From positions 31,692 through 95,691 of the forward strand of contig JABAZV010000006.1 of NCBI GenBank assembly GCA_018608435.1: a DNA stretch of 64,000 bases. The letters are read 5' to 3'. A program made the translations under genes and the position numbers. Below the pieces are notes generated by a model. That model saw only the letters and a list, made by a program, of their open reading frames with translations. It had not been told where the DNA came from and did no database searches. Positions 414 to 17,529 of the stretch are shown here, piece by piece; within the stretch, counting starts at the first letter, position 1; every line of letters begins with the position of its first letter. The DNA is from Patescibacteria group bacterium. Its GTDB lineage: Bacteria > Patescibacteriota > Minisyncoccia > Phycocordibacterales > UBA918.

Positions 414-440
414 AAAAGACGATCCAAAGGATCGTCTTTT
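414..440. terminator. Rho-independent terminator, probably bidirectional (11-12 bp perfect stem, AAA loop) after the rluB-like operon
   Basis: AAAAGACGATCC-AAA-GGATCGTCTTTT is a perfect hairpin. It is flanked by an A-run upstream and a T-run downstream. It lies between the stop of ORF 465..1184 and the sigma factor start. Confidence 0.65.
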
Positions 441-464
441 AAATGTTGTGCTTATAGTATTGTT

Positions 465-1184
465 CTACATACTTACTCCAATCGCTTGCAGAAAGGCAGT
501 TAGCTCCAATCCTTGGATTTTGCGGAATTGGTTTGGTTTTAGCTTGTCGAGTTCGATGTTTGTTACGCGCACACGCTTGAGTGTTTCGATTTGGTAGCCA
601 AGTGCTGCGCACATTCGCCTGATTTGGTGTTTCTTGCCTTCGGTAAGAATAATAGTAAAACGTTTGTCGTTTTTCGGGCTTCTGGTCGCTTTGGCTGCTT
701 TGGTGCGGTAGCCTTCAATATCAACGCCGTTTTCCATCGCGCGCATAAACATGCCGGAAACCTTCTTGTCTACGAGCACGTCGTATTCTTTTTCGTGATT
801 TGCTTCTGGGTCGAGCAGTGGGCCAGTGATTCGGCCGTCGTTAGAAAGTATAATAAGGCCTTCGGAGTCTTTGTCGAGACGGCCGACAGGCGACATGTCA
901 GTAATGCCGTAATCTTTTTTAAGTCTTCCTGCGATATCTATTTCATTTTCGCCTGGTGAATGAGTAATAACGCCGCGTCCTTTGTAGTATGCTAGGTAAG
1001 ATTTTACTTTTATTTTTCCGATTACTTCGACAGTGTCATCGACTTCGACTTTTTGCCCGAGCTCAGCTACTTTGCCGTTGATTGTAATTTTCTTTTTGCT
1101 TATGAGATCATCAACTTCGCGCCTCGAAGCAACCCCGTTTTTGGCGAGGTATTTATTGATCCGCATTGGGAATTCTTCATTCAT
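465..1184 (-). CDS. rluB: Pseudouridine synthase, RsuA/RluB family (S4 domain plus catalytic domain)
   Basis: The N-terminal S4 motif is RINKYLAKNGVASRREVDDLI. The catalytic motif VGRLDKDSEGLIILSNDG carries the conserved Asp. The 239-aa length fits RsuA/RluB/RluF, and I cannot distinguish the subfamily. Confidence 0.85.
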   Translation of the reverse strand: MNEEFPMRINKYLAKNGVASRREVDDLISKKKITINGKVAELGQKVEVDDTVEVIGKIKVKSYLAYYKGRGVITHSPGENEIDIAGRLKKDYGITDMSPVGRLDKDSEGLIILSNDGRITGPLLDPEANHEKEYDVLVDKKVSGMFMRAMENGVDIEGYRTKAAKATRSPKNDKRFTIILTEGKKHQIRRMCAALGYQIETLKRVRVTNIELDKLKPNQFRKIQGLELTAFLQAIGVSM

Positions 1185-1193
1185 GCTTGTACA

Positions 1194-1709
1194 CTACTCT
1201 ATTGTAGAGGAATATGGAAGCATAATAGTGTCACTCACTAGCTTGGCGATGCTTTCGCGCGCGGAACGAGTGCGGTTGCTGCCAACATAATAGGGGAGTT
1301 CAGAAACTGTAATACGATAAAGGTCAGATTCTGTCGGTGCTGTATTTTCTATATCGGCAATAACATAAAGGGTGAAATCAGCTTGAGTGTAAGGAGCAAG
1401 CACATAATATGATCCTTCCACCGGTAAATCAGCCAATAGTAAGCCTGAAGTTTTGACAGAAATGTTGTCGGATGGAGTTTTGCTTTGAAGATTGTAGCCG
1501 ATTAAGTCGACATTGTCTTTGCTAGTAATACCAATCTTTGCACCAATCGGCAGCCGGGTTTCTTCAGCTCCAGTAGAGAAGTTTATGTTTACACTAAAGA
1601 GAGCGATCGTGTCGGTGGCGGCATAGCTTATACCTGAGCCAAGAGCATTAGCTGGTAAAACTCCAATACCTCCAACTAAAACAAATAAAGCGATTACGTA
1701 TGATTTCAT
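1194..1709 (-). CDS. Secreted hypothetical protein (signal peptide, beta-rich), co-directional with and 9 nt upstream of the pseudouridine synthase gene
   Basis: The complete ORF is 171 aa. The N-terminus MKSYVIALFVLVGGIGVLPANALG is signal-peptide-like. I recognise no known domain. Confidence 0.55.
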   Translation of the reverse strand: MKSYVIALFVLVGGIGVLPANALGSGISYAATDTIALFSVNINFSTGAEETRLPIGAKIGITSKDNVDLIGYNLQSKTPSDNISVKTSGLLLADLPVEGSYYVLAPYTQADFTLYVIADIENTAPTESDLYRITVSELPYYVGSNRTRSARESIAKLVSDTIMLPYSSTIE

Positions 1710-1851
1710 GTGTAGTATTTTACTATATATATGAAGTGTCGCAAATTTACAGAGTGCTACAATCGTGCAGTGTAAGTAAAATGACTATTTTATAACCTGA
1801 GAAAGATTTATCGGTGTTGACTTAACTTGTTAATTCTGGGGAAAGGTTGGT

Positions 1852-1896
1852 GTATCTGTGCGAGTGACAGCCTGCGGCTGTCACTCGCACAGATAC
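1852..1896. repeat. Perfect 21-bp inverted repeat with a 3-nt spacer (GTATCTGTGCGAGTGACAGCC-TGC-GGCTGTCACTCGCACAGATAC) in a divergent intergenic region
   Basis: I verified this base by base. No T-run follows on either strand, so it is not a canonical terminator. It lies between the divergent ORFs 1194..1709 (-) and 2050..4038 (+). Confidence 0.7.
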
Positions 1897-2049
1897 ATTT
1901 CACACATCCAGTTCTCCACACTATACACAGCTTGCGTTTTCGAAAAAAAGTAGTATAGTCTGAACAACACGTCAAACCCCATAAGTAGTTGTTGCCGTGG
2001 GATCATTCAATCTAGTTCTTACTTCAAGTCTGTACGATACTTAATACAG

Positions 2050-4038
2050 ATGTTTTACCTTATTCAGATCACTTTAATACCTTTATTTATGAACGCTTTT
2101 TATTCTCTTAAAACTAATGCCTCAGCGCGCGCGCTAGCATTTTTAACCGTACTTTCGTTGCTTGTAAGCAGCTTGCCGTTGGCTGTTTTTACAGCAAATG
2201 CAGCGAGTGATGCTGTTGGTACGCTTACAGCTTTTGTGCTCCCAAACCCTTCAGATGGTGCTGGTGAGTACGTAGATCTTCAGTTTGTTGGTACAGGCAC
2301 GCTTGAACTAGCTGGCTGGACTATTTTTGACGCCAACAGGTTGCTTAATGACAATCCTCTATATACTTTTACAGAAACAGACATTCTTACTAATGGTGAT
2401 GAGCTGCGTCTGTGTGGCAATATGGCACTAGTGACTAACTGCGATATTGTTTATCCTGGCGGGAATACCGTTTGGAACAATACAACCGACACGCTCACGC
2501 TTAAGGATGAAGCAGGAGTAACAGTCCTAGAGTTTGATTGGACAGATCCTTTTGTTGAAGGTCTTGAAAATGGAGATACACCTGTTGATTTTTCTGCTGA
2601 AGAAGAAGAAGAAGATGAAGACGAAGCTGATACAAGTACATCTACCGAGCCGACAGGTTCTATCACGGTTGATCCCACAGTGCTAGAAACTACTATTTCA
2701 ACGCAAGTAAACTTCGTTGTTTCAGCGGAGTATGAAAACCTCTCATCTACACAAATCGTAGTGTCTGATGATTCTACTACTGGTTTGTTCTTCGGAGGCA
2801 ACACTGCGGGTGAATGTAATTCAGCTACTGTTGTTGAAGATAATACTTTTATTATTACTAACAACAAAGGTATTTGCTACTCAAACAGTGTTGCTGGCGA
2901 TTACGAAATCACTGCACAGCTAGTTGGTGGAGCAAGTAGTACTCCGGTAGGTGAAGCGGTTGTTATTGAGGTTTCTGTTCTTGCAGGTCAAGATGAAACA
3001 GGAACTACAACTGACGAAGGCACAGGAACTACAACTGACGACGGCACCGGAACAACTACTGACAACGGTTCAGGCACTACAACAGACAACGGAACAGGCA
3101 CGACTACAGACGATGGTGCTGGAGGCGGAGACGATGATGAAACAGGTGCGGGATCAGGTGGAGGTGGTGGTAGTGCAGAAACAGCTGGTGAATGTGAAAT
3201 TGAAGCTCATAAATACGACAGTGAAGGAAATCCTCTTTCAGGCTGGATGCTTGGTCTTATGAAGGTTATTTACAACGATGAATTCACAAATACATACTCT
3301 CTAGCTGAACAAGAAACTGGTGCTGATGGTTACGTATGTCTTGAATGGGATGGTGAAACTCGTTCTCCATTAAGCGTGGAAGGTGAAATTACTGGTAATG
3401 ACTACAATTTTGACTACTACGTATATGAGACATTGCAAGACGGATGGACAAATTGGTCAATCGAAGCTGGAGCAGACTTCAACAATCTTGTTGTAGTACC
3501 AGACGAAGATGTTCGTAGCGATGGTTTTACAGCCAGCGTACAGATTGGTGAGACTAATGGTTTCCTTATTAAAGGCGCAGCTTTCCATGTTGATTTCTAC
3601 AACCTTCTTCTAAACGGCGTAGAAACAGGAACATCAACTGACGATGGAACTGGAACAACTACAGACGACGGTACTAGTACTACGACTGATGATGGTACAG
3701 ACACAACTGTAAACGAAGTACCGCGTGGCGGTGGAGGTTCACTAGCTTCACCAGCTAACAGGGGTGGAAGTAGTGGAGGCTCAAGCTCTTCTGATGATGA
3801 GCTTGAAGAAGCTGGTGCGGCACCGCTTGTGGTGGGAACTACAAACAATGACAATGGTTCTGGTGACGGAAATACTCCAGCAGCACAAGTGCTTGGTGAT
3901 CAGGTAAGTGTTGTGCCATTTGGTGGTGCTGATACTGGTGCTGGCGGGAGTGCTCCACAGGCAGCTTCATTATGGGCTTCTCTACTGCTTGCGGTTTTGG
4001 CAGCTGGACTACGTTTTACACGACGCTTTGTAGCTTAG
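2050..4038 (+). CDS. Secreted cell-surface protein with Thr/Asp-rich tandem repeats and a C-terminal hydrophobic segment plus Arg-rich tail; candidate substrate of the adjacent sortase
   Basis: The N-terminus carries a signal peptide. An acidic run EEEEEDEDE is followed by GTGTTTDDGT repeats. The C-terminus ...VVPFGGADTGAGGSAPQAASLWASLLLAVLAAGLRFTRRFVA is a TM plus RR tail, like a cell-wall sorting signal but without LPXTG. A sortase gene lies 26 nt downstream. Confidence 0.8.
   Translation: MFYLIQITLIPLFMNAFYSLKTNASARALAFLTVLSLLVSSLPLAVFTANAASDAVGTLTAFVLPNPSDGAGEYVDLQFVGTGTLELAGWTIFDANRLLNDNPLYTFTETDILTNGDELRLCGNMALVTNCDIVYPGGNTVWNNTTDTLTLKDEAGVTVLEFDWTDPFVEGLENGDTPVDFSAEEEEEDEDEADTSTSTEPTGSITVDPTVLETTISTQVNFVVSAEYENLSSTQIVVSDDSTTGLFFGGNTAGECNSATVVEDNTFIITNNKGICYSNSVAGDYEITAQLVGGASSTPVGEAVVIEVSVLAGQDETGTTTDEGTGTTTDDGTGTTTDNGSGTTTDNGTGTTTDDGAGGGDDDETGAGSGGGGGSAETAGECEIEAHKYDSEGNPLSGWMLGLMKVIYNDEFTNTYSLAEQETGADGYVCLEWDGETRSPLSVEGEITGNDYNFDYYVYETLQDGWTNWSIEAGADFNNLVVVPDEDVRSDGFTASVQIGETNGFLIKGAAFHVDFYNLLLNGVETGTSTDDGTGTTTDDGTSTTTDDGTDTTVNEVPRGGGGSLASPANRGGSSGGSSSSDDELEEAGAAPLVVGTTNNDNGSGDGNTPAAQVLGDQVSVVPFGGADTGAGGSAPQAASLWASLLLAVLAAGLRFTRRFVA
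3001..3120 (+). repeat. Five tandem 24-nt repeats encoding GTTTD(D/E/N)G(T/S/A) within ORF 2050..4038; a second three-unit array lies at 3628..3699
   Basis: I read the units directly: ggaactacaactgacgaaggcaca, ggaactacaactgacgacggcacc, ggaacaactactgacaacggttca, ggcactacaacagacaacggaaca, ggcacgactacagacgatggtgct. Confidence 0.7.
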
Positions 4039-4063
4039 GCTGTGTGATTAAGTAAATTGTATT

Positions 4064-4666
4064 TTGCTTATGAATATTAACAAAAATCACCTCGAAATTG
4101 GGGTGATTTTTGTTTTTATGGCCGTACTAGTATTTGTTCCTAAGGGTGATCTTACGTCAGTCGAAAGAACAGAAGTAGAGGCGTTAGAAAGTGATTTTAT
4201 AGTTCAGGTTGCACAAAACCAATCTCTGCCTAAAACTCTGAGAATTCCAAAACTTAACATAGAAACTTCGTTTGGCTCAACTTTGGGTTTAACAGACAGT
4301 GGGGAAGTAGCTGTGCCTGATAATTTCTCCAATGTCGGTTTGTATGAATATGGTCCTCGTCCAGGGGAGCTTGGTCCGGCGGTTGTGCTTGGTCATGTTG
4401 ATTCTTATGAGGGTCCAGCAGTTTTTTATTCAATTGGTCAACTTGACCTCGACGATAAGATAGAAATTGAAACTGAAGATGGCACAAAACTAACCTTTAT
4501 TGTAACTGATTCTGTAAAATATTTACAAGATGATTTTCCGACGGAGCTGGTTTATGGAGACCTCGATCATGCTGGTTTACGGCTCGTGACATGCTCTGGA
4601 ACGTACAATAGAGACAAGAATCGCTACACACATAATCGTGTGATTTACGCAAGATTAGAAGGTTGA
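4064..4666 (+). CDS. Sortase (class E/F-like cysteine transpeptidase)
   Basis: There is an N-terminal TM. LRIPKLNIE matches the L.IPk.i motif. VVLGHVD holds the catalytic His. LRLVTCSG is the TLxTC Cys motif. NRVIYARLEG holds the conserved Arg. The gene is adjacent to a surface protein with a sorting-signal-like C-terminus. Confidence 0.85.
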   Translation: MLMNINKNHLEIGVIFVFMAVLVFVPKGDLTSVERTEVEALESDFIVQVAQNQSLPKTLRIPKLNIETSFGSTLGLTDSGEVAVPDNFSNVGLYEYGPRPGELGPAVVLGHVDSYEGPAVFYSIGQLDLDDKIEIETEDGTKLTFIVTDSVKYLQDDFPTELVYGDLDHAGLRLVTCSGTYNRDKNRYTHNRVIYARLEG

Positions 4667-4800
4667 ATAGTGAAATATTACGCTCGATATTGATTATATC
4701 GTTAATAAAGGCCATATATTTTGCTATTGACAAAAAACACTTTTCGGTATACAAATATACACATACCAGAAGTTCTCCAAATTTGTCGCATGATTTTTGT

Positions 4801-4824
4801 CTTCACTGGGTGACCAGTGAAGGT
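4801..4824 (+). promoter_or_regulatory. Perfect 9-bp stem-loop (CTTCACTGG-GTGA-CCAGTGAAG) in the putative 5' leader of the GT2 gene
   Basis: I read this in the sequence. There is no T-run after it. It lies about 47 nt upstream of the ATG at 4871. Its function is unknown. Confidence 0.3.
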
Positions 4825-4870
4825 TTAACGTGTGCTCAGGTGAGAATGACGTAGAGCAATTTATAAAAGT

Positions 4871-5905
4871 ATGACAATCACAATTTTAATACCATGTCAC
4901 AATGAAGAGCTCGGCATCGCCGCAACTGTTCAGTCGTGTTTAAACCAAACACGCAAGCCAGATCAAATTCTGGTTGTAAATGATGGCAGTACTGATCGTA
5001 GTGGCGAAATTCTCAAAAGCTTTGGTGATCAAATTCAAGTTTTGCATTTGCCCAAAGCAACTGGAAACAAAAGTCACGCCCAAGAGCTTGGACTTAAATT
5101 TGTAACTACAGATGTGTTTATTGCAACAGACGGCGACACGCAATTGGATGAGCGATTTGTCGAATACGTTGAAGAGGATCTCGAAAACAATCCTGAACTC
5201 ACAGCACTTGGTGGTTACGTGCGTAGCCAGCGTCACAACTGGCTTACCGCCTGTCGTGCCTTTGAATACAGTGTAGGACAAAACCTACACAAGCTTGCAC
5301 AACATCATCTTGGTTTTCTGTTTGTGATCCCTGGAGCGGCTGGAGTTTTCAAAACTGATCACTTCCGTAAATACATTTCTTTTGAACATGATACTTTGAC
5401 TGAAGACCTCGACTTCACCTACCGTCTGCACTCACTTGATCTTAAAATTATGTATGACCGTCGTTTGGTTGTATTGACACAAGATCCTGCCACACTGCAC
5501 TCATACATCAACCAAATGCGTCGATGGTTTGGCGGCGGTTGGCAGACTCTGATGAAGCATCACCGATTGGCTTTTAAAAAACCAAAAATTGCGCTGGAGT
5601 TGTCGATTATGTATGCAGAAGGAATTGTGTTTTCAATTTTGGTATTTTTGTTACCATTCTTGAGTCTTGAATTCTACAAGAACTTTATCTTGTCGTACTT
5701 TGCATTAGCGATCGCATTTGCTATCTTTGCTGCTTGGAAAGAGCGACGAATTGAAATGTTGTTGGTTCCGATTCCTTACGTATTGTTAGTATTAATCAAC
5801 TCGTATATATTCTTGGAGCAATTTGTTAAGGAGGTGGTTTTGCGTCGCAAGAACCTTACTTGGTTCCATCCAGAACGATTTAATAATAGTGAGAAATTAA
5901 GTTAA
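4871..5905 (+). CDS. Processive family-2 glycosyltransferase (beta-polysaccharide synthase-like: DXD, TED, QxxRW) with a C-terminal TM region
   Basis: The GT-A N-terminus is ILIPCHNEE...VVNDGSTD. The DXD is IATDGDTQLD. The TED motif is LTEDLDF. The QxxRW motif is INQMRRW. Three or four C-terminal TM helices follow. These motifs are diagnostic of cellulose/chitin/PNAG/hyaluronan-type synthases. Confidence 0.8.
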   Translation: MTITILIPCHNEELGIAATVQSCLNQTRKPDQILVVNDGSTDRSGEILKSFGDQIQVLHLPKATGNKSHAQELGLKFVTTDVFIATDGDTQLDERFVEYVEEDLENNPELTALGGYVRSQRHNWLTACRAFEYSVGQNLHKLAQHHLGFLFVIPGAAGVFKTDHFRKYISFEHDTLTEDLDFTYRLHSLDLKIMYDRRLVVLTQDPATLHSYINQMRRWFGGGWQTLMKHHRLAFKKPKIALELSIMYAEGIVFSILVFLLPFLSLEFYKNFILSYFALAIAFAIFAAWKERRIEMLLVPIPYVLLVLINSYIFLEQFVKEVVLRRKNLTWFHPERFNNSEKLS

Positions 5906-5910
5906 TTAGT

Positions 5911-6339
5911 ATGTTTTTTCAACTCGCAGGCCTGTCTCTAATAGTGCATCTTTTGATCATTTCCATGGCAGCTATATTCAATTTTGTAAGAGGAAGAAAA
6001 ATTTCATCAGCTTTTGACACGAAGAAAAAAGAGCATGGTCCCTCGTCTAAATTTGTAAGCATGCTGGTGTCTGGGTCAATTCTGACATTTGTATTCGTTT
6101 ACATGTTCTCACTGATGACCCTTGCTATATCAACTGGAGTTAAGGTTGGTGCTGATGAGCCGCAGGTTATCTTCATGAAAGAGCTATTTGGCACAGTCCT
6201 TGGTTGGATGATTGCTACTTTAACTCACCCTGTAGGAGTACTTAGTTTGCTTGTATTGGTTAGCGTTGTTATCGAGCTAAGTACACTACGTTACCGCCGA
6301 CAGTACAGTCGAGCGATGAGTAGCTCGATGGGAAGCTAG
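5911..6339 (+). CDS. Small integral membrane protein (about 4 TM), co-transcribed with the GT2 gene; possible synthase accessory subunit
   Basis: The ORF is 142 aa and starts 5 nt after the GT2 stop. It has four hydrophobic segments. I recognise no domain. Its position is analogous to IcaD/PgaD, which is inference only. Confidence 0.55.
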   Translation: MFFQLAGLSLIVHLLIISMAAIFNFVRGRKISSAFDTKKKEHGPSSKFVSMLVSGSILTFVFVYMFSLMTLAISTGVKVGADEPQVIFMKELFGTVLGWMIATLTHPVGVLSLLVLVSVVIELSTLRYRRQYSRAMSSSMGS

Positions 6340-6408
6340 TATTAAAAATGAAGTCACTAGAATTTAGAAAATTATCAATCATTTCAGTCAGTCAATAATT
6401 ATCGTCTT

Positions 6409-9400
6409 ATGAAAACTCCATTCAATCAAACTCGTAGTAATGTTCTTGTCGCCTTAGTAATGCTAGGTGCAGCATTGACATTCTTTGCACCGCAGTCAGC
6501 TTTGGCGCAAATTCCAGATGTCGTAATAAACGAGTCGGGGTTTGAGAATGAAGTGATTGCTGGTGGATTGAGTTTACCTACTGCGATGGCCTTCACTCCA
6601 GACGGGCGTATTTTTGTGACTGAAAAGAGTGGAGTTGTTCAGGTGATCAAGAATGGTGTTGTTCTAGCAGCTCCTCTTATTTCGCTTACAGATGTGAACA
6701 CTTTCGGCGACCGTGGTTTGCTTGGAATTGAGACTGATCCAAACTTTGCTTCAAACGGTTACGTGTATTTGTTATATACATATGAAAACTCACCAGGGAT
6801 AAACATCTCTGGTGCTAAGACTGCGCGAATCGTGCGAATCACTGTTACTGGCGACACTGCTAGTGAGTCTAGCAAAGTTGTTTTGGTTGGAGCTGTTGGC
6901 GGAAATGTTACTTCACCTTCGTGTGAGGATTTTGCTGTAACTGCAGACTGTATTGCGTCTGACTCAAACAGCCACAGTGCTGGCGGTTTGCGTTTTGGTC
7001 CTGACGGCAAGCTTTACGCCACAACTGGCGACGGAGCAGACTTTGCAGCGGTAGACAGCCGCGCACTGCGTGCCCAAGACATTGATTCGTTGGCTGGAAA
7101 AGTGCTTCGTATTAATACTGACGGAACTGCTCCAGCAGACAACCCGTTTTATGATGGTGATCCTGACTCAAACCGATCTAAAGTTTATGCTTTTGGTTTT
7201 CGTAACCAATTCCGCTTCAATTTTAATACCGAAACAGGCAAGCTTTATGGAGGTGATGTAGGATGGAGCTCATGGGAAGAAATCAACGAAGTAGTAGCTG
7301 GCGCCAACTACGGCTGGCCTTGTCGTGAGGGAGATTTTGCACAGGCTGAATATGCTTGTGATCCGTCAACTGTAGCTTCGGATCCTGTTTATGCTTACGC
7401 GCATGACGCAACTGGCGCAGGTTCAATCACAGCTGGCTCATTTTTCGAGAACAATGTATACCCGGCTGAGTATTCTACTAGCATGTTTATTGGTGACTAC
7501 GCGCAGCAATGGATGAAGCGACTAGTACTCGACACAAACGGAAATGTGGTTGAAGTAGTTGATTTTGTGCCCAATATGATTTGGCCGGTTGAGATTACAA
7601 CTGGCGCTGATGGAAATGTTTATTACATCGATATCGCACGAGGATCTGTAAACCGTATTACTCACACAGAAGGAAACCGTAGTCCGGTTGTAAACATTAC
7701 TGCTACGCCAACTTCTGGTCTATCGCCACTTCAAGTAGAGTTTTCAAGTGCTGGAACTCAGGATCTTGATGGTGATACACTTTCTTATTTCTGGACATTT
7801 GGAGACGGTGCGACGGCAGCCACTACAAGTCCTGTTCATACTTATACAACAAATGGACTTTACACAGCTTCGCTCCAAGTAACTGATTCTAATGGCGCTA
7901 CGGTATCAAAAAGTATTGATATTACGGTTGGTAATCAATCTCCAGCGGCTGAGATTACTAGTCCCGTTAGTGGTTCGTTCTATGAAGCTGGTCAAACATT
8001 GTCTGTTTATGGTCTTGGTACCGATCCTGAAGACGGAGCTATTCCAGCTGAAAACATTTCTTGGGAAGTAATACTTCATCATAATGTTCACACTCATACG
8101 TTATCGACGGCTGCAGGAGTGGATACAATTGAATTTCAAGCTGATGGTCATGACGATCCTGATGTTTACATTCGAGTCGTAATGCGAGTAACAGACAGCA
8201 ACGGTTTGGTTGGTGAGGACAGTATCAACATGTATCTCGACAACGGTTCAGGTATTGCTGGAAACTTGATTTCAAATCCTTCACTTGAAGAAGCTGATCC
8301 AGCTTTTGCTATTCAACCGCTTGATTGGATTCCGGGATGGTATGGAAACATGAACCCTGTATTTGAATATCCAGTTAACGGACTTTCTGGCGAAAAGGCT
8401 GCGCGAGTAACAGTTACTGATTATGTCTCAGGAGCAGCGAGATGGTATTTCTCTCCAGCCTTTGTGCAAGTGGGTACTGACTACAGATTTAGTAATGTTT
8501 ACATTGCAGATACAACTACCACTTTTACTGCTCAGTACGGTCGTTCAGATGGAACATACTTTTACGAAGTACTCAAAGTGCTTCCCGCTGTGTCTGATCC
8601 TACTAGTGCTGAGGTGACTTTCACTGTGCCAGAAGGAGTTCAGACAATGACTATTTTTCACGATCTATTTGCTAACGGTACTTTGACTGTGGATGAGTAT
8701 TCGTTGGTAGAAGTTTCTGGCGATACAAACCCACCGACTGGTTTCTTTACTAACATCGTGCCTGGTGATGTTGTTTCAGGAACCGTTTTGCTTGACGTGA
8801 CTGCAGCTGATGCTGAAGGTGATGTAACAATGGTGCATCTTTACGTGGACGGAGCAAAAGTTGAAGGAATAGAAGATACTACCGCACCATTTCAGCTTTT
8901 GTGGGACACGACTGCATTTGCAGACGGTGGGCACACAATCCAAGTTCATACACACGACGAAGTAGATAATGCTGGTTTGTCTGACCCAATCGCTATTACT
9001 ATTGATAATAGTTCTACTTCGACAAATCCAAATCTAGTATTTAATGGTGACTTTGAGATTGTTGGAGATGATGGTTTACCAGCCGGTTGGATACAGGGCG
9101 GTTGGGGTACAAACGAACGCGTTTACACTTACCCAAGCAATGGTCGCGATGGAGGAAGAGCAGCGGCTGTGTCTATTAATAAGTATGATCTGAGTGACGA
9201 CGGTGACGCTAAGTGGGTATTTTCAGATATTCCGGTTATTGTTGGTACAGAATACACATACAGAAATTATTACTATTCTGACACGATCTCAGACATAATT
9301 GGTCGCTACACTTACGCTGACGGCAGTATTTCTTACTTTGGTTTGATTAAGGAAATTGCACCTGTGGCTGATTGGACGCCGCTTGAAGCTACCTTTACAC

Positions 9401-12400
9401 CACCAATTGATGCTGTGAGCATAACGCTTTTCCAATTGGTAAGTTCTGTTGGTACAGTGGCTGTTGACGATGTCTCAATAGTTGTAAGTGGCACCAGCGG
9501 GCCAAGCGAAGCTAATGCACCAGCTGTCAATATCACAACTCCAGCGGCTGGAACGACTATAAGTGGAACTGTAACGGTCGTTGCAAACGCAACTGACGAT
9601 ACGGCGATAGTAGGAGTTTACTTTGCTGCAAATGGTATTCCAATCGGAAGCGAAGACTTTGCTGCTCCATATAATTACGTTTGGGACACAACAGCTGTAC
9701 CAAATGGAGAGTATATCCTGAAAGCAACTGCTCATGATCCATACGGAAACAACAATAAAGACGAAATTACAATAACTGTTGATAATAGTGGTGTAACGCC
9801 TCCGCCTTCTGGTGGCAATCTTATTGCCAACGCAGATTTTGCAACGGTAGTAGCAGGTGAACCAGCAGGCTGGAATAAAGGAGGATGGGGAACAAACAGT
9901 CGTGTTTTGACCTTTGTAGACAATGGCGGAAACGACAAGTATATTCGAACTGCAATTTCTGATTACGTATCAGGTGACGCGAAATGGTACTTCAATGATG
10001 TGTCTGTAACAGCTAACGAAACTTACGGTTACACGAGTACTTATCGATCCGATGTGCCAAGCGCTCTGACAGCTCGCTACACCAAAGCAGACGGCAGTAT
10101 TCAGTACGAATACCTCGGAGGCGAGCCTGCTTCTGCAGCATGGAATGATACTCAGGCTTACGACATCACAACTCCAGCGGACACGGTTTCATTGACTGTT
10201 TTCCATTCAATCAGCACAGCCGGTACGCTCGATGTACAAAGTGCAATATTGACTGGTGTGGCTGGTGAGCAAACAATCGAAGATCTGCAGCAGATGGTCA
10301 GTGATCTATTCCTTCAGATAAATGGTTTGTTGGCAAATGCTGGTAAAGAAGTAGATTCTTGTGATCTGATGACACTTGATCTAGCTAAAAACGCAGAAGA
10401 ACTTGATGCCCAGATTAATGATTTACTTGCAGTGCTTTCTGTACTGCAGGGAGGTGGAGTACCAGTTATTGGAACTTGTACAGTAACTGACATTCCAGTC
10501 GGTGCTAACCTGATCGCAAACGGCGATCTAGAAGTTGGTTCAGCAAACAATCCAACAGCTTGGGCTCAAGGAGGCTGGGGTACTAATGCTCGCGCCTTCA
10601 CTTACCCAGTAGCAGGCGAGACTGGTGACGCTGCTCGAGTAGAAATCACAAGCTACACCTCAGGTGACGCAAAATGGTTCTTCAATGACGTAACAGTGGT
10701 GTCTGGAACTGATTACACTTTTAGCGAAACTTACAAAGCAAACGTAGCTTCTGGACTCACAGCTCGCTACACTACAGCTGACGGTACAGTTTCTTACGAG
10801 TATCTTGCAACATTGCCAATTGCGGCAACGTGGCAAACTCACGTTGAAACAATCTCAGTACCAGCAGGCGTTACTGCTCTCACTATCTTCCACACTATTA
10901 CATCTGTAGGTGTGCTAGATATCGACAACTTCTCACTAACCGGAGCAGATGGTGGTCCTGGAGGTGGCGGAGGAGGGGTTACTCCACCAACTATTAGTTA
11001 CACAGGAGTAAGTGATGGTGATACTGTAACGGGACGACTTGTTCTAAATGTATCATTAGTAGACGGTAGCGCAGCTCCTTACCAGTCAGTTCAGCTGGAA
11101 ACAAATGGCACACCTGTAGCCAGAGACACAACGGCACCATATGTGTTGGCTTGGGACACAACTCGTTTTGCAGATGGTGACTACGAACTTGTAGTTGTAG
11201 TAAACGACGAAGTCGAAGCAAAAACTCAATCTGCGGCAATCAACATCACAGTTGATAATGTTGCTGACCCAGTAGATCCACCTCCGGTAGATCCTCCAAC
11301 AGGGAGCGGAATAATCAACGGATCAATGGAAGCGGCTGACCCAACTGACGCAACGCGTCCAAACGGTTGGAGCAAAAGTGCTTTCGGAGAATACGATGTA
11401 ACATTCACTTATCCAATTGCTGGAATAAGTGGAAACGGAGCGCGAGTTGAGCTTGCTAACTACATATCAAGTGACGCAAAGTGGGTATTCGAACCAGTCT
11501 CCGTAACAGCTGGAGCACTATACACACTGACTCATAGCTATCGTTCTGATGTAGAGACTACTATTAGTTTGGTATATCAGCGAGCCGACGATTCTTTCTA
11601 CTACATTGGACGAGTAGACTTAGCACCTAGCGCAACTTGGAAAACAGTCAAAGATTCATTCGTTATTCCAGATGATGCTGTAGCAGTATCTGTATTTCAA
11701 AGCCTGACTGCAGACGGTTTCCTTGAAGTAGACGAATTCATGCTAGAGCTTGGAACACCAGATGCTTTCAGTCAAGGAATGATTTCTCTTAGCTTCGATG
11801 ACGGTTGGCTAACTCACTATACTGAAGCTTTGCCACTGCTTGAAAAACACGACACTGACGCAACTTTCTACATAGTTAGTGGCTACACAACAGAAGCAAA
11901 TGGATCAGAACTAGTCGCCAACAACCTTATTTCAACAAACAACGGCAACGGTACACCAACAGGATGGTTCCAAGGTGGTTGGGGAGATAGTACTCAAGCA
12001 CTGGACTATAATATTACTGGCGGCGTGAATGGTGATGGTTCAGTGCGTACTGAAATAACAAATTATGTTTCTGGCGACGCTAAATGGTACTTTGATGACG
12101 TGCCAGTGACAGCAGGAGAATCATATGCTTTAACGCAAACTTACCGTTCTACGACTGACACTCAAATCAACGTTCGTTACACAATGTCTGATGATTCGTT
12201 CGTATACGACTTCATTGCTGGCGCTCCAAATACTGGAAACAGTTGGGAAGTGAATTCAAGTATAGTTGTTGCTCCAGTTGATGTGGTATCAATGACAATC
12301 TTTCATGTAGTTACTAGCGACGGAGTGCTAGAAATCGACAATGCATCAATTGTGTTAGTCGAAGACTTCATCTCTACCGACGAGGTACAGCGTTTGGCTG

Positions 12401-12891
12401 CGGCTGGTCACGAGATTGGTTCACATACTATTACCCACAGTTACCTCACAACATTAAGTGAGGCAGGGCAGGTAGCAGAACTTGAAAATTCAAAATCTAC
12501 TCTTGAGAACACGATTGTTCCAGGTGTTGCTGTGACTAGCATCGCGTATCCTTACGGAGACTACGATGGCTCAGTATTAGACAAAACAGCTGCGGCTGGC
12601 TATGACGCGGCGCGCGGAGTAGACCGAGGCTATAACACCAAAGCGACCGAACGTTACGCGCTTAAAGTGCAGCAAGTCGATCGTACAACAACAATTGCTG
12701 ATATTAACGAATGGATGACACAGGCAGAAACCGACGGTACTTGGTTAATCCTTATGTTCCACCAAATCGACGACATCGCAGCCAACGATCTCGGTATCAC
12801 AGCAGAATTCCTAGATGAAATCCTGACGACAGTAAACAACAGCGGAATCGCAGTGACAACAATAGGTGACGCAATCGGACTTTTGAACTAA
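6409..12891 (+). CDS. Giant secreted multidomain protein (2160 aa): PQQ-type sugar dehydrogenase-like beta-propeller, PKD/Ig-like domains, six CBM_4_9-like modules, and a C-terminal CE4 (NodB) polysaccharide deacetylase with one CBM module inserted
   Basis: It has a signal peptide. The SGDH-like propeller shows AMAFTPDGRIFVTEKSGVVQVI...LLGIETDPNFASNGYVYLLYTY. The PKD domain shows LSYFWTFGDGATAATTSPVHTYTTNGLYTASLQVTDSNG. Six modules repeat about every 600 bp, each with GW..GGWGTN...SGDAKW(Y/F)F.D.. ...W...PA..T.FH...S.G.L.(I/V)D. The CE4 motifs are SFDDGW (motif 1), GHEIGSHTITH (motif 2), IAYPYG (motif 3) and LILMFH (motif 5). Confidence 0.9.
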   Translation: MKTPFNQTRSNVLVALVMLGAALTFFAPQSALAQIPDVVINESGFENEVIAGGLSLPTAMAFTPDGRIFVTEKSGVVQVIKNGVVLAAPLISLTDVNTFGDRGLLGIETDPNFASNGYVYLLYTYENSPGINISGAKTARIVRITVTGDTASESSKVVLVGAVGGNVTSPSCEDFAVTADCIASDSNSHSAGGLRFGPDGKLYATTGDGADFAAVDSRALRAQDIDSLAGKVLRINTDGTAPADNPFYDGDPDSNRSKVYAFGFRNQFRFNFNTETGKLYGGDVGWSSWEEINEVVAGANYGWPCREGDFAQAEYACDPSTVASDPVYAYAHDATGAGSITAGSFFENNVYPAEYSTSMFIGDYAQQWMKRLVLDTNGNVVEVVDFVPNMIWPVEITTGADGNVYYIDIARGSVNRITHTEGNRSPVVNITATPTSGLSPLQVEFSSAGTQDLDGDTLSYFWTFGDGATAATTSPVHTYTTNGLYTASLQVTDSNGATVSKSIDITVGNQSPAAEITSPVSGSFYEAGQTLSVYGLGTDPEDGAIPAENISWEVILHHNVHTHTLSTAAGVDTIEFQADGHDDPDVYIRVVMRVTDSNGLVGEDSINMYLDNGSGIAGNLISNPSLEEADPAFAIQPLDWIPGWYGNMNPVFEYPVNGLSGEKAARVTVTDYVSGAARWYFSPAFVQVGTDYRFSNVYIADTTTTFTAQYGRSDGTYFYEVLKVLPAVSDPTSAEVTFTVPEGVQTMTIFHDLFANGTLTVDEYSLVEVSGDTNPPTGFFTNIVPGDVVSGTVLLDVTAADAEGDVTMVHLYVDGAKVEGIEDTTAPFQLLWDTTAFADGGHTIQVHTHDEVDNAGLSDPIAITIDNSSTSTNPNLVFNGDFEIVGDDGLPAGWIQGGWGTNERVYTYPSNGRDGGRAAAVSINKYDLSDDGDAKWVFSDIPVIVGTEYTYRNYYYSDTISDIIGRYTYADGSISYFGLIKEIAPVADWTPLEATFTPPIDAVSITLFQLVSSVGTVAVDDVSIVVSGTSGPSEANAPAVNITTPAAGTTISGTVTVVANATDDTAIVGVYFAANGIPIGSEDFAAPYNYVWDTTAVPNGEYILKATAHDPYGNNNKDEITITVDNSGVTPPPSGGNLIANADFATVVAGEPAGWNKGGWGTNSRVLTFVDNGGNDKYIRTAISDYVSGDAKWYFNDVSVTANETYGYTSTYRSDVPSALTARYTKADGSIQYEYLGGEPASAAWNDTQAYDITTPADTVSLTVFHSISTAGTLDVQSAILTGVAGEQTIEDLQQMVSDLFLQINGLLANAGKEVDSCDLMTLDLAKNAEELDAQINDLLAVLSVLQGGGVPVIGTCTVTDIPVGANLIANGDLEVGSANNPTAWAQGGWGTNARAFTYPVAGETGDAARVEITSYTSGDAKWFFNDVTVVSGTDYTFSETYKANVASGLTARYTTADGTVSYEYLATLPIAATWQTHVETISVPAGVTALTIFHTITSVGVLDIDNFSLTGADGGPGGGGGGVTPPTISYTGVSDGDTVTGRLVLNVSLVDGSAAPYQSVQLETNGTPVARDTTAPYVLAWDTTRFADGDYELVVVVNDEVEAKTQSAAINITVDNVADPVDPPPVDPPTGSGIINGSMEAADPTDATRPNGWSKSAFGEYDVTFTYPIAGISGNGARVELANYISSDAKWVFEPVSVTAGALYTLTHSYRSDVETTISLVYQRADDSFYYIGRVDLAPSATWKTVKDSFVIPDDAVAVSVFQSLTADGFLEVDEFMLELGTPDAFSQGMISLSFDDGWLTHYTEALPLLEKHDTDATFYIVSGYTTEANGSELVANNLISTNNGNGTPTGWFQGGWGDSTQALDYNITGGVNGDGSVRTEITNYVSGDAKWYFDDVPVTAGESYALTQTYRSTTDTQINVRYTMSDDSFVYDFIAGAPNTGNSWEVNSSIVVAPVDVVSMTIFHVVTSDGVLEIDNASIVLVEDFISTDEVQRLAAAGHEIGSHTITHSYLTTLSEAGQVAELENSKSTLENTIVPGVAVTSIAYPYGDYDGSVLDKTAAAGYDAARGVDRGYNTKATERYALKVQQVDRTTTIADINEWMTQAETDGTWLILMFHQIDDIAANDLGITAEFLDEILTTVNNSGIAVTTIGDAIGLLN

Positions 12892-12911: not shown

Positions 12912-12976
12912 GAAACCCTAAAATATAATGACCGGAGCTTTAGCTCTGGTCATTAATATTTTAGGGTTTCTTTTCT
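12912..12976 (+). terminator. Rho-independent terminator with an unusually long (about 27 bp) near-perfect stem after the 2160-aa gene
   Basis: GAAACCCTAAAATATAATGACCGGAGC-TTTA-GCTCTGGTCATTAATATTTTAGGGTTTC is followed by TTTTCT. The stem has one indel and one mismatch. Confidence 0.65.
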
Positions 12977-14540: not shown

Positions 14541-15821
14541 TTAATCTGTCTCTTCACCGATCGCGCGCAAGAACACTTCCCAAGCATCATCGTCAGACCA
14601 GAGCAGCCAGTTTCTTTCTTTGTTCTGGTTAAACCAAATCCAAGCTTCGATGTTTTTGTAGCGAGGAATGACATCAAAGAATCCTTCAGTCATCCACTTG
14701 GCCTTGTTTGGTCCTTCAGCTGACGCAAATGAGAAAATGAATATTGGCTTGTTGTATTGCGACAGAGTATCAAGCGGGCGAGTGAAAATCTCTTCAAAGG
14801 TGTACCACGGCGGCCCGTCATTAAACCCGTCTACACCGACAATATCGACGTAAGCATCGCCAGGGTAGTAGTTTTCAATCTTGTTTTCTGGAGTGTTTGG
14901 CACTGACGAAGCATTTACAGCCCAGCCAAATTTAACATTATTTAAGTGATTGAAGTAATCATGAATATACCGATAAGCTTGCACAGCCTTTTCTGGTGTA
15001 TTGCCGTTCTTGGTTCCACTCCATGGTGTCCAGTTGCCGTTTAGTTCAGAAAAAGGAATAAGAATAACCTCACCTCGGTAATTTTCTAGCTGGTCGGCAA
15101 AATCCTCGAAGTAATCGTCCCAGTTGCCATTTAAGATGTTCTGGTAAGAATAGGCAGGCTGATTTGTGCCTCCGATAGTGTAATCGCTGGCCTCCCAAAA
15201 GAGGACGAGTGTTCGGTCTTTGTCGCGTGCGTAGGTCTTGAGGAAGCTTGGTAAAGCACCATCACCGTTGCCCCAGTGAACAAAGAAGGCGAGATAATCA
15301 GGATTGGTTTCTACGCGTTGTTCAAAATCTTTGATGGCACCGGCATTTGAGCCAGTAAACACACCCCAATCTAATTGTTTGTATGGCGCCGGTGGAGTGT
15401 CGACAACTGTAGAGGGCTGGTTGGAGTAAAATGAAATATTGGTCGGTTTTGGAAGGATTGTGTTGTTTAGTGTGGTGGTTGATGTAGCTGCTGCAACTGG
15501 CATCTCTTCAATAACAGGCTTAATTGTTGTTTCTTGTTCAATCTCTACTGGCTTTACTGCTACTTCCTGTTCTTGCTGAACCTCTTTTGTTTCAGGTGTT
15601 TGTTGTAATTCTTCTGATTCTTGAACTATCACCGCTGTTTCTTCTGGCATTGTGTTTGTAGATAATTCTTCTGATTCGTGCAGAGCGTAAGCTGTTGGAG
15701 ATCTGGTTATAATTGACGGACTGTTAATTATCGTACTCGTTGTTTTTGGTGGAGTAGGGTTAATATTTTCAATTATTTCCTCCTGAACAGGTTGGTTGTG
15801 TGTACGCAAAATGTCTGCCAC
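14541..15821 (-). CDS. Glycoside hydrolase family 26-like (beta-mannanase family) with an N-terminal membrane anchor and a Pro/Glu/Thr-rich linker
   Basis: YYPGDAYVDIVGVDGFN matches the GH26 signature YYPGD.YVD.VG.D.Y(N/D). ILIPFSELNGNW matches the GH26 catalytic-acid region (HEMNG.W). Confidence 0.75.
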   Translation of the reverse strand: MADILRTHNQPVQEEIIENINPTPPKTTSTIINSPSIITRSPTAYALHESEELSTNTMPEETAVIVQESEELQQTPETKEVQQEQEVAVKPVEIEQETTIKPVIEEMPVAAATSTTTLNNTILPKPTNISFYSNQPSTVVDTPPAPYKQLDWGVFTGSNAGAIKDFEQRVETNPDYLAFFVHWGNGDGALPSFLKTYARDKDRTLVLFWEASDYTIGGTNQPAYSYQNILNGNWDDYFEDFADQLENYRGEVILIPFSELNGNWTPWSGTKNGNTPEKAVQAYRYIHDYFNHLNNVKFGWAVNASSVPNTPENKIENYYPGDAYVDIVGVDGFNDGPPWYTFEEIFTRPLDTLSQYNKPIFIFSFASAEGPNKAKWMTEGFFDVIPRYKNIEAWIWFNQNKERNWLLWSDDDAWEVFLRAIGEETD

Positions 15822-16044
15822 AAAGAATAGACATATAAAAAGGCAGAATCCACCACTGAGATAGAAAGCTTTCTTTTGTTTTCGATTTAACGGTGTCGAT
15901 TTCAGAGCTAGTATTATAACTCATTCTGAGTTTTGTTTGTGGTTTATGTATTTAAAATTGTGTCTTGTAGGTTGTCCTGTATGCCAATGTTAAATCTGCT
16001 CAGCAAATTCACTCAGAAACGGTGTTTGTGCCGCGTCTGCAGGT

Positions 16045-17529
16045 TTGACGATGCTATACTTTGTTATTATGAATAGTAATAATGACCATCATCTATCAAT
16101 TTCGCTGCAACCGTCTCGGCTGCAGCGGGTGGCAATGTCTTTGATGGCGGTCATGGTGCTGGTGACATTTGTTGCTACAAATTTGCAGGCTTTATTATGG
16201 CAATCTTCTTCTTGGCTGGTGGGAGCTGTTTTGCCGGCTGTGGTTGTTGATCTTACTAATGAAGAGCGTGGTGGGGTAGAAGCATCTTTGCTTGCGCGAA
16301 GCAGTCTGCTAGATGAGGCGGCACGCTTGAAGGCAGAACACATGGCTCAGAATGAGTATTTCTCGCACTATAGCCCTGAGGGAGTGACGCCGTGGGAATG
16401 GTTTGACGAGGTTAATTACGTTTACGCACATGCAGGAGAAAACCTAGCTATTCATTTTTCTGATTCATCTAAGTTGGTAGAAGCTTGGATGAATTCTCCT
16501 TCTCACCGTGAAAACATTGTGAATAGTGAATTCACAGAAATCGGCGTCGGTACAGCTAAGGGAAAGTTTGAAGGTTACGATACGGTTTACGTGGTGCAGC
16601 TGTTTGGCACTCCAGCAGTCATTGCTGAAGTAGAAGTCGTAACTGAGCTTGACGCAACAACATTTTCTTTGATTGAAGAAGTAGCTCCAGAAACAATTTC
16701 ATCAGATGTAGAACCAGCAATTGAAGAAACTGAAGAATTTACAGCAGTAGAATTAGCAGCAGTGACTGAGCCTGATATCGCTGCCGAGACTACTGCACTG
16801 GCTGAAGTTCTGGCAGTGCAGACTGAGGAAGTGATGGGAATAGTGGTAAAAGAAGATAGTTCTCATGCAGAAGAGGCTGCTAGCTATGAAGAAGCAACAA
16901 TAGAGATTAAGATTGAAGATCAATTAATTGAAACAGAATTAGAAACAGCCATAGATAATGAGGTTAAATTCACTGATTTGGCTGCTGTTTTAGATGTTGA
17001 ACCCGTTGAGTTAGAGGGTGTCGAAGATGAAATTTTACCATCTTCTACTTCAGAAACTGTTGTGGAAATCGAAGACCCTGCAAGTTCGACTCTGTTGTCT
17101 GGCAGCAGTGGACCAGCTGAATTAGTTAAAGCCGAGAACAGTCTGTCTGAGAGTGTTTCTGACTCTGAACAAGTGGCAGATGTTTCTGTTTATAAAGCAA
17201 GCCCTGCTGAAGTTATGCAAACTACGTTTCTATCAACATCATCTGGCTTAAAAGCGGTTGACTCTAAAAACACTTTTGTGACTGAGAAAACACTTTCTGC
17301 CACAGCAGGAACGACTGCCGCCGCGCTTGCTACCCAGCCACATGCGCTGTTGCGTGTCATATATATGTTGCTCACAACAACTATCCTTGGCTTGCTTGTG
17401 GCATCAATGGTGCTCGAGGCACGTCGTTTGCATGTGGTGCAAGTCGCTTATGGCTTTTTACTTATTTTAGGAATGGGAGGTTTGTGGTTCCTGCACGGTT
17501 GGTTTGTGGGTGGTGCGGTTGTGGTTTAG
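16045..17529 (+). CDS. CAP/SCP (YkwD-like) domain protein with an acidic low-complexity region and two C-terminal TM helices
   Basis: LTNEERGG...EYFSHYSPEGVTPWEWF...GENLA...EAWMNSPSHRENIVNSEFTEIGVG matches the CAP domain motifs. Confidence 0.8.
   Translation: MTMLYFVIMNSNNDHHLSISLQPSRLQRVAMSLMAVMVLVTFVATNLQALLWQSSSWLVGAVLPAVVVDLTNEERGGVEASLLARSSLLDEAARLKAEHMAQNEYFSHYSPEGVTPWEWFDEVNYVYAHAGENLAIHFSDSSKLVEAWMNSPSHRENIVNSEFTEIGVGTAKGKFEGYDTVYVVQLFGTPAVIAEVEVVTELDATTFSLIEEVAPETISSDVEPAIEETEEFTAVELAAVTEPDIAAETTALAEVLAVQTEEVMGIVVKEDSSHAEEAASYEEATIEIKIEDQLIETELETAIDNEVKFTDLAAVLDVEPVELEGVEDEILPSSTSETVVEIEDPASSTLLSGSSGPAELVKAENSLSESVSDSEQVADVSVYKASPAEVMQTTFLSTSSGLKAVDSKNTFVTEKTLSATAGTTAAALATQPHALLRVIYMLLTTTILGLLVASMVLEARRLHVVQVAYGFLLILGMGGLWFLHGWFVGGAVVV

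Follow-up and report, generated by a model that had tools for sequence, protein, structure and literature searches.

What would a Patescibacterium build with a membrane glycosyltransferase, a small membrane protein and a giant secreted protein encoded one after another on the same strand? The question is raised by positions 4871-12891 of a 64,000-nucleotide stretch of DNA, hereafter the window, from a Patescibacteria group bacterium (assembly GCA_018608435.1, contig JABAZV010000006.1, positions 31,692 to 95,691 of the forward strand). An earlier reading of the window, the original prediction, had proposed that the locus follows the synthase, accessory protein and deacetylase logic of icaADB and pgaBCD, and that it makes and partly deacetylates a polymer of the N-acetylglucosamine (GlcNAc) type. 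The gene order on which that proposal leaned is kept across Patescibacteria, in lineages whose glycosyltransferase family 2 (GT2) proteins are 48-83% identical. There is also a fourth conserved member that the prediction did not contain, a gene for a protein resembling family 26 glycoside hydrolases (GH26-like). We think that the locus probably encodes a synthase-dependent GlcNAc-type surface-polysaccharide system, and attach that probability to the mechanism as a whole, GlcNAc-based product included. The parts, with the evidence for each in brackets, are these.

4871..5905, + strand: GT2 synthase, 344 aa (open reading frame [ORF], Pfam, motifs, AlphaFold2 [AF2] model)
5911..6339, + strand: small membrane partner, 142 aa (5-nt gap after the GT2 ORF)
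6409..12891, + strand: giant secreted or anchored modification protein, 2160 aa, whole ORF (ORF, Pfam)
12926..12955, + strand: terminator-like hairpin with a 13-bp stem, just 3' of the giant's gene (consensus scan only)
14541..15821, - strand: GH26-like glycoside hydrolase, 426 aa, catalytic domain at aa ~150-426 (Pfam)

The three same-strand ORFs at 4871-12891 have the lengths, and the first two the 5-nt spacing, that had been claimed for them. The hairpin at 12926-12955 likely marks the end of their transcription unit, to judge from a consensus scan that found no terminator-like site of similar quality inside the unit ahead of it. Our comparison set comprised 82 GT2-bearing Patescibacterial loci, 81 of which entered an all-against-all clustering of ORFs; a GTDB scan with one genome per species contributed 80 loci, nearly all with Patescibacteria lineage labels. 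Synteny of the deacetylase, a carbohydrate esterase family 4 (CE4) enzyme, was counted only in the 61 loci with at least 4 kb of sequence downstream, and that of the GH26-like gene was judged in 42 loci with wide flanks on both sides. The clustering returned no conserved members beyond the GT2 protein, its partner, the proteins carrying carbohydrate-binding modules (CBMs) and CE4 domains, and the GH26-like protein. An IcaC-like acyltransferase, a PilZ protein, an exporter or porin and an acetyltransferase were all without a conserved place in the clustered neighbourhood, and the remaining recurrent clusters were antisense shadow ORFs. A literature search turned up no account of such a system in Patescibacteria; one paper names PgaC, in other phyla only.

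The GT2 protein is very probably a processive membrane synthase that acts with its partner. The DXD, TED and QxxRW motifs that had been reported in it are there, as DGD (aa 87-89), TED (aa 177-179) and QMRRW (aa 215-219, nt 5513-5527), and all three are invariant in 22 homologues. Pfam recognises Glycos_transf_2 (2.6e-24), Glyco_tranf_2_3 (6e-19) and Glyco_trans_2_3 (1e-14), each above its cut-off. The GT-A domain begins at residue 2, with no transmembrane segment ahead of it, and is followed by interface helices and three C-terminal transmembrane helices (aa ~238-323, nt 5582-5839), after which comes a conserved NLxWFxPxR motif at the C-terminus. The ORF has no room to extend upstream, and homologues are 338-372 aa long. 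Among curated families the top match is PgaC_IcaA (TIGR03937; 135.6 bits, E 2.2e-39); the next best family reaches 56.6 bits, NodC 43, CelA 27 and the polyprenyl-phosphate transferases about 20. The alignment with Escherichia coli PgaC covers 240 aa at 30% identity (E 3e-33), and the DGD, TED and Q(x)RW motifs occur in both proteins.

Structure points the same way. The AF2 model (pLDDT 79.3) consists of a GT-A domain, interface helices and three long C-terminal helices. Its top Foldseek matches in the Protein Data Bank (PDB) are full-length hyaluronan synthases (HAS), XlHAS1 (8smn) and CvHAS (7sp7), at a query-normalised score (TMq) of 0.77 over some 370-390 aligned columns; yeast Chs1 and BcsA come next, and the membrane part is included in the alignment. 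Soluble and non-processive GT2 structures cover only the GT-A half, at a TMq of about 0.46. A profile search of PDB sequences related aa 154-277 to BcsA and aa 42-305 to HAS. A non-processive or lipid-carrier GT2 was tried as an identity and rejected, structures of the DPM, GtrB, ArnC and TarP types matching the N-terminal GT-A half only. The clustering with non-processive families that would have told against the original prediction was thus not seen. Homologues in the database number more than 1000, the best 120 of them at 62-83% identity, with Nomurabacteria (one homologue 77% identical), Kaiserbacteria, Parcubacteria and "Patescibacteria group" metagenome-assembled genomes among their named sources; a look-up of the window's exact GT2 sequence returned no record. 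This company marks the window as coming from a bacterium of Parcubacteria/Paceibacteria type.

The synthase has an obligatory, translationally coupled membrane partner. In most loci an ORF with two N-terminal transmembrane segments starts between 19 nt before and 20 nt after the GT2 stop, and in some as far as about 145 nt beyond it. An iterated profile built from the window's partner matched this position in 81 of the 82 loci and had only four other matches among 9752 ORFs. The family is new and previously undescribed: no Pfam or NCBIfam family matched it, and a single-sequence HMMER search of 1.84 billion representatives retrieved only 23 relatives, most of them stand-alone proteins of 100-196 aa aligned across their first ~95 residues. 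Its signature is PFsGLSLxIHLxII in the first transmembrane segment, where G7, S9 and H13 are invariant, and (R)EGxxEPQ after the second. These two N-terminal segments form the family core. The window's member has a third hydrophobic segment, so that it carries three clear ones (aa 5-23, 48-66 and 108-126) rather than the four transmembrane segments first counted. A three-segment topology with the N-terminus outside and the C-terminus inside would agree with the positive-inside rule and also with the fused relatives to which we come next. As for its proposed role as the counterpart of IcaD or PgaD, position upholds it and homology to PgaD does not.

Two of the 23 relatives form the N-terminal part of much longer proteins (2010 and 2141 aa). 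In the ten loci closest to the window's (L001-L010) the partner lies in one reading frame with the giant, and in L001 the gene is called as a single 2141-aa protein; in some lineages, then, the partner is covalently joined to the downstream modifying protein. In these fusions the partner is followed by a variable linker and then by a last transmembrane segment with an AxA|Q signal-peptidase-like site, and it is to this last segment before the ectodomain that the giant's signal segment in the window corresponds. The fused precursors may be cleaved at AxA|Q, giving the same two pieces for which the window has separate genes. Partner and giant are likewise split in L011, L013, L014 and L051. Since the window's two ORFs share a frame, we considered a read-through or recoded stop joining them, and rejected it on finding four in-frame stops in the 69-nt AT-rich spacer.

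The giant itself is a chain of recognisable parts, all on the + strand.

6409..6507, +: signal peptide or signal anchor, aa 1-33, ending ...SALA|QI (cleavage site inferred)
6571..7629, +: GSDH/PQQ-type sugar dehydrogenase-like β-propeller, aa 55-407 (Pfam PF07995, 181.8 bits against a cut-off of 25)
7675..7929, +: PKD domain (PKD_4), aa 423-507 (Pfam)
8263..8715, +: CBM-like module 1, aa 619-769 (repeat profile)
9031..9486, +: CBM-like module 2, aa 875-1026 (repeat profile; best CBM_4_9 match, E 2.9e-4, under cut-off)
9520..9726, +: Big_7 Ig-like spacer, aa 1038-1106, one of three Big_7 (Pfam)
9817..10260, +: CBM-like module 3, aa 1137-1284 (repeat profile)
10507..10944, +: CBM-like module 4, aa 1367-1512 (repeat profile)
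10999..11259, +: Big_13 Ig-like spacer, aa 1531-1617 (Pfam)
11311..11748, +: CBM-like module 5, aa 1635-1780, directly ahead of the CE4 domain (repeat profile)
11749..11907, +: CE4/NodB N-terminal piece, aa 1781-1833, with motif 1 SFDDGW (Pfam, AF2, alignment)
11908..12360, +: CBM-like module 6, aa 1834-1984, inside CE4 between motifs 1 and 2 (repeat profile, AF2 model)
12361..12888, +: CE4/NodB C-terminal piece, aa 1985-2160, with motifs 2, 3 and 5 (Pfam, AF2, alignment)

The deacetylase at the end of this chain has its catalytic residues in place. Polysacc_deac_1 (PF01522) scores 89.3 bits against a cut-off of 23.1, in two separate stretches, and the four motifs lie where they had been reported: SFDDGW at aa 1795, HEIGSHTITH at aa 2001, AYPYG at aa 2046 and LMFH at aa 2115. 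Alignment with the Colletotrichum chitin deacetylase ClCDA (2iw0) identifies D1797 as the base, D1798, H2006 and H2010 as the metal triad and H2118 as the acid, so the loss of a metal-binding Asp or His, which would have spoken against the original prediction, is not found. All 43 homologues compared retain the three histidines, and the two aspartates occur in all 22 sequences aligned there. In motif 3 (RxPY) the Arg has become Ala (AYPYG), as in PplD (6dq3). With the insert removed, the CE4 core finds the Colletotrichum enzyme as its best PDB match (3.8e-14), followed by the Aspergillus niger chitin deacetylase, Streptococcus pyogenes PplD and GlcNAc deacetylases of peptidoglycan; last among the matches listed comes BpsB, an orthologue of PgaB (8e-4). 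Of the 61 loci with enough downstream sequence, at least 40 have a CE4 homologue on the strand of the GT2 gene and downstream of it.

The six CBM-like modules are repeats of about 150 aa with pairwise identities of 29-47%. They had been described as CBM_4_9-like, a description that survives at the level of fold: all six fall under the gathering threshold of Pfam CBM_4_9 (PF02018, 25.9 bits), the best at 21.6 and the others at 15 bits or less or with no match, whereas many homologues have precomputed PF02018 matches. The expected β-jelly-roll or β-sandwich was found, and by fold the modules are CBM4/16/22/70-like, module 6 having its best structural matches in CBM70 (4d0q), CBM22, CBM16 and CBM4.

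Module 6 does indeed sit inside the deacetylase, at nt 11908-12360, where the insertion had been placed at about 11900..12360. An AF2 model of aa 1777-2160 (pLDDT 93.8) has it as an all-β module (residues ~57-212 of the segment) that emerges from a complete NodB fold. Unusual, the word first applied to it, holds among solved structures, where we found none with a CBM inserted between CE4 motifs 1 and 2. In Patescibacteria the arrangement is common. There, 27 CE4 genes have a gap of 115-176 aa between the two halves, against 16 without the insertion, in which the CBM lies directly upstream of CE4.

At the other end of the giant, the sugar dehydrogenase-like propeller that had been recognised there is confirmed by its Pfam score. 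The catalytic-His position aligns with the PQQ aldose dehydrogenases 3a9g and 2ism, the H of 'SHSAGG' falling on the H of 'IHNGG' in 3a9g. One might speculate that the propeller oxidizes the reducing end of the polymer.

The fourth member scores 48.8 bits for PF02156, the GH26 family in Pfam, against a cut-off of 20.2. Of the 82 loci, 47 have a homologue (31 of the 42 with wide flanks), placed either right behind the CE4 gene or 2-3 kb upstream of the synthase gene. Among solved structures the lichenase CtLic26A, CelH of Clostridium thermocellum, is nearest to it (E 3e-34 over 268 aa), and the two share an acid/base Glu in an (H/S)E-x-N-G motif. This residue, E259 in the window and E109 in CtLic26A, is kept in all 51 locus homologues and all 120 database homologues (171/171). 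The nucleophile is another matter. Where CtLic26A has Glu222, the window protein has Ser364, and Ser occupies the position in 50 of 51 locus and 120 of 120 database homologues (170/171). A retaining clan GH-A enzyme stripped of its nucleophile cannot carry out the usual hydrolysis of glucans. In GH18, GH20 and GH84 enzymes the 2-acetamido group of the substrate serves as nucleophile. The change from Glu to Ser therefore leaves two options: the substrate's own 2-acetamido group acts as the nucleophile, or the protein is non-catalytic. From this we infer indirect support for a polymer of acetamido sugars. The family is tied genomically to a PgaC-like synthase, as CtLic26A is not, and two of its members carry the same CBM module as the CE4 proteins (L027 8449-9873, E 1e-41; L038 7720-9840, E 1e-44), which ties hydrolase and deacetylase to the same glycan.

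Put together, the parts suggest how the machine might work. The minimal PgaC/IcaA-like GT2 protein, whose fold and motifs are those of a synthase, would polymerise, at the cytoplasmic face, a UDP-sugar that is most likely UDP-GlcNAc, and would thread the chain through the membrane. The small partner, adjacent to it and in places fused to the giant, would use its two-segment core to supply the transmembrane helices missing from the short synthase, completing or stabilising the channel, and would position and tether the downstream modification protein at the channel exit. The CBM-like modules of the giant would then capture the emerging chain, and its metal-dependent CE4 domain would remove some of the N-acetyl groups, with the CBM in the rim loop between motifs 1 and 2 perhaps holding the polymer at the active site. 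Outside the cell, the GH26-like enzyme with no carboxylate nucleophile may trim or release the polymer, plausibly by way of the substrate's 2-acetamido group. The product, a cationic and partly deacetylated glycan, would remain at the cell surface and serve there in the wall or in adhesion. Both the sugar proposed for it and the proposed linkage draw on family resemblance. On linkage the family resemblances disagree: the GT2 protein is nearest PgaC/IcaA (β-1,6) but the CE4 domain is nearest β-1,4-GlcNAc deacetylases. That it is β-1,6 in particular is possible, if somewhat doubtful.

Several observations weigh against this proposal. The score of the GT2 protein, 135.6 bits, is far under the TIGR03937 equivalog cut-off of 422.3. 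The N-terminal transmembrane hairpin of PgaC is absent, residue 2 of the GT2 protein aligning with PgaC residue 76, and three transmembrane helices in one chain compare poorly with the at least five to six usual for a translocation channel. For the partner, no homology to E. coli PgaD (BLASTP E 0.75; hhalign probability 0.2%) and no similarity to the N-terminal hairpin of PgaC was detected, and the topology that we propose for it, N-terminus outside, is unlike that of PgaD. The CE4 domain is nearer to β-1,4-GlcNAc deacetylases than to PgaB or IcaB and falls under both equivalog cut-offs (34.9 against 321.9 bits for TIGR03938, PgaB; 18.2 against 248.35 for TIGR03933, IcaB). O-acetyl-xylan esterases, too, are found among CE4 enzymes. 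About one third of the loci with enough flank have no CE4 gene within 10 kb. The GH26-like protein has a β-1,3-1,4-glucanase as its nearest characterised relative, no conserved Asp adjoining its acid/base residue was seen, and the loss of its nucleophile could equally mean an inactive, lectin-like protein. Finally, the window's copy lacks the N-terminal signal or anchor found in most homologues. Its gene begins with a GTG at 15821, and a hydrophobic stretch is encoded in a different frame by a 51-aa ORF (15769-15924); that stretch and the absent signal together suggest a 5' frameshift or an assembly error.

The GH26-like protein is also where a different polymer has to be considered. The same architecture could serve an O-acetylated β-glucan or another hexose polymer (cellulose, curdlan or a mixed-linkage glucan), with the CE4 domain an O-acetyl esterase and the GH26-like protein binding or cleaving glucan. 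A lichenase is, after all, the closest solved relative of that protein, the fold neighbours of the CBMs bind xylan, glucans or hyaluronan, and the C-terminal half of the GT2 protein matches BcsA. Yet the GT2 protein scores 135.6 bits for PgaC_IcaA and only 27 for CelA, and by sequence the CE4 core comes closest to chitin deacetylases, to PplD and to the enzymes that deacetylate GlcNAc in peptidoglycan. A retaining β-glucanase needs its nucleophile Glu; in this family Ser has taken its place in 170 of 171 homologues, with the acid/base Glu conserved throughout, and an O-acetylated product finds no acetyltransferase conserved in the neighbourhood. We consider a polymer other than GlcNAc distinctly unlikely.

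Need the giant and the synthase belong to one system at all? Patescibacteria are mostly episymbionts, and the CBM-CE4 giant and the GH26-like protein could be offensive or foraging tools directed at the host wall or at environmental glycans such as peptidoglycan and chitin, in which case the GT2 protein and its partner would be a separate matter and the linkage genomic only. The resemblance of the CE4 domain to peptidoglycan and chitin deacetylases would suit such tools, as would the absence of a nearby CE4 gene in about a third of GT2 loci and the presence in the window of other secreted glycan-active genes (GH18, cohesin and dockerin). What speaks for a single system is the recurrence of GT2 protein, partner and CBM-CE4 protein in one-strand order in very divergent lineages (GT2 identity 48-83%), and the fusion of the synthase's obligatory partner to the CBM protein in the nearest relatives. 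That fusion makes independent functions unlikely, and we judge the offensive or foraging explanation quite improbable.

The weakest alternative has the GT2 protein as a membrane glycolipid or lipid-carrier glycosyltransferase (GT21/MGlcDG-synthase-like, or a polyprenyl-phosphate sugar synthase) that decorates scavenged lipids, and it is very improbable: three transmembrane helices with none at the N-terminus, a weak Glyco_transf_21 match (E 0.002, under cut-off), the very high conservation expected of a core envelope function and the occurrence of QxxRW in some non-processive lipid glycosyltransferases would all agree with it, but the alignments to DPM-, GtrB- and ArnC-type structures do not reach beyond the first ~110 residues, HAS, Chs and BcsA are full-length structural matches, and the conserved partners (CBMs, CE4 and glycoside hydrolase) are directed at polysaccharides.

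How does a GlcNAc-type system of this kind compare with those already known? The staphylococcal icaADBC operon, which makes PIA, a poly-N-acetylglucosamine (PNAG), has a like gene order, from an IcaA-like GT2 protein through a small membrane protein to a CE4 deacetylase, in a like monoderm-type envelope with no outer-membrane porin; PgaC_IcaA is the best curated family of the window's GT2 protein, and the metal site of the extracellular CE4 domain is intact. The differences are as plain. The window's synthase has no N-terminal transmembrane segments and scores well under the equivalog cut-off, its partner has no IcaD-type homology so far (the comparison being with PgaD and the PgaC N-terminus only), and Patescibacterial loci have no IcaC-like acyltransferase. 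The deacetylase is not IcaB-like. Its chain also contains CBMs, Ig domains and a GSDH propeller, one CBM lying inside the CE4 fold, and the GH26-like member is extra.

With pgaABCD of E. coli the Patescibacterial system shares a GT2 catalytic core (30% identical to that of PgaC, with DGD, TED and Q(x)RW in common), a synthase that needs or pairs with a small two-transmembrane protein encoded immediately downstream, and a deacetylase and a glycoside hydrolase acting on the product. It has no PgaA porin and no PilZ or cyclic di-GMP module. Its hydrolase is GH26-derived and a separate protein, whereas PgaB contains a GH153 domain; its partner is unrelated to PgaD, and its CE4 domain is only distantly related to PgaB.

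The mixture of a PgaC-like synthase with a deacetylase of another stripe has a precedent in Streptomyces. In MatB the GT2 domain is nearest PgaC and the CE4 domain nearest chitin and peptidoglycan deacetylases, and the product has been shown to be PNAG (bioRxiv 10.1101/089920). The Patescibacterial system has the same mixed pattern, and in both cases synthase machinery is physically coupled to CE4, although by different fusions: MatB joins GT2, transmembrane segments and CE4, so that it is the GT2 protein that is joined to the deacetylase, whereas in the Patescibacterial relatives it is the partner. An accessory membrane protein of unknown fold, MatA, is a further likeness. CBM arrays, the GSDH propeller and the GH26-like member are Patescibacterial features. 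For the domain insertion the nearest parallel is BoPDA of Bacteroides ovatus, a polysaccharide-biosynthesis deacetylase whose CE4 domain is inserted into a CBM (PMC11713874). Both proteins combine CE4 and CBM by insertion, but the topology is reversed, the CBM being the insert (between motifs 1 and 2) and CE4 the parent in the window. BoPDA is without the canonical His-His-Asp triad, which the window's CE4 keeps.

The window holds other genes that we looked at as neighbours. Upstream of the GT2 gene lie a 662-aa Lamin-tail-domain (LTD) protein (2050-4038, + strand) whose C-terminus bears a sorting signal of the GVDTG type (NF058571, 25.6 bits, just short of the cut-off of 29) and a class F sortase (4064-4666, + strand; 149.8 bits against a cut-off of 166). 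This pair was rejected as part of the module, as it precedes the GT2 gene only in the closest relatives L003-L009. The same position is filled in L001, a Nomurabacteria relative, by a complete V/A-type ATPase operon (424-9173 of that locus), directly upstream of GT2. On the other side, a 494-aa secreted protein of the CAP/YkwD family (16045-17529, + strand), with a long acidic linker and C-terminal transmembrane segments, is syntenic in L009, L010 and L065 only. A GH18 (chitinase-family) protein is encoded 5 kb downstream of the module (18059-19288, + strand), flanked by an S24 LexA/UmuD-like peptidase (17594-18055, + strand) and a Y-family polymerase with IMS, IMS_C and DUF4113 domains (19401-20651, + strand); syntenic in just 1 of the 82 loci, it too was rejected as a member. 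Farther on are a dockerin-domain protein (24360-26258, + strand) and a cohesin-domain protein (26992-28542, + strand), with a 161-aa ORF between them, which by their predicted domains would be a cohesin-dockerin pair in a Patescibacterium. They are followed by a 5599-aa ORF (28737-45536, + strand) with few recognisable domains, matching only DUF2341 and a fragment of Ig_Rha78A_N.

What might all this mean for the organisms that carry the module? The boldest reading that we entertain joins every strand of the argument. The locus would be a phylum-wide, near-core machine for an envelope or adhesion glycan rather than an accessory biofilm operon; the partner would turn a stripped-down synthase into a working channel and tether the modifying enzyme; a CBM would be wired into the rim of the deacetylase active site; the GH26-like protein would be the first GH26, or clan GH-A, enzyme to work without a carboxylate nucleophile, by substrate assistance on GlcNAc; and the cationic glycan would attach episymbionts to their hosts. 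That all of these hold at once is rather unlikely, and we offer the whole as tentative. The parts have an interest of their own for enzymology: a minimal three-helix synthase, probably processive, that a new family of partners would complete in trans, a CE4 enzyme with a CBM between its catalytic motifs and a GH26-derived family uniformly without its nucleophile. Patescibacteria, or the candidate phyla radiation (CPR), make up a large share of bacterial diversity, are mostly uncultured, and have surface coats and modes of host attachment that are poorly understood. In the conserved four-gene module there is now a definite candidate for a polymer of their surface or of adhesion, one that can be tested, and if its product is PNAG-like, anti-PNAG reagents and dispersin B would be usable to enrich, stain or detach these organisms.

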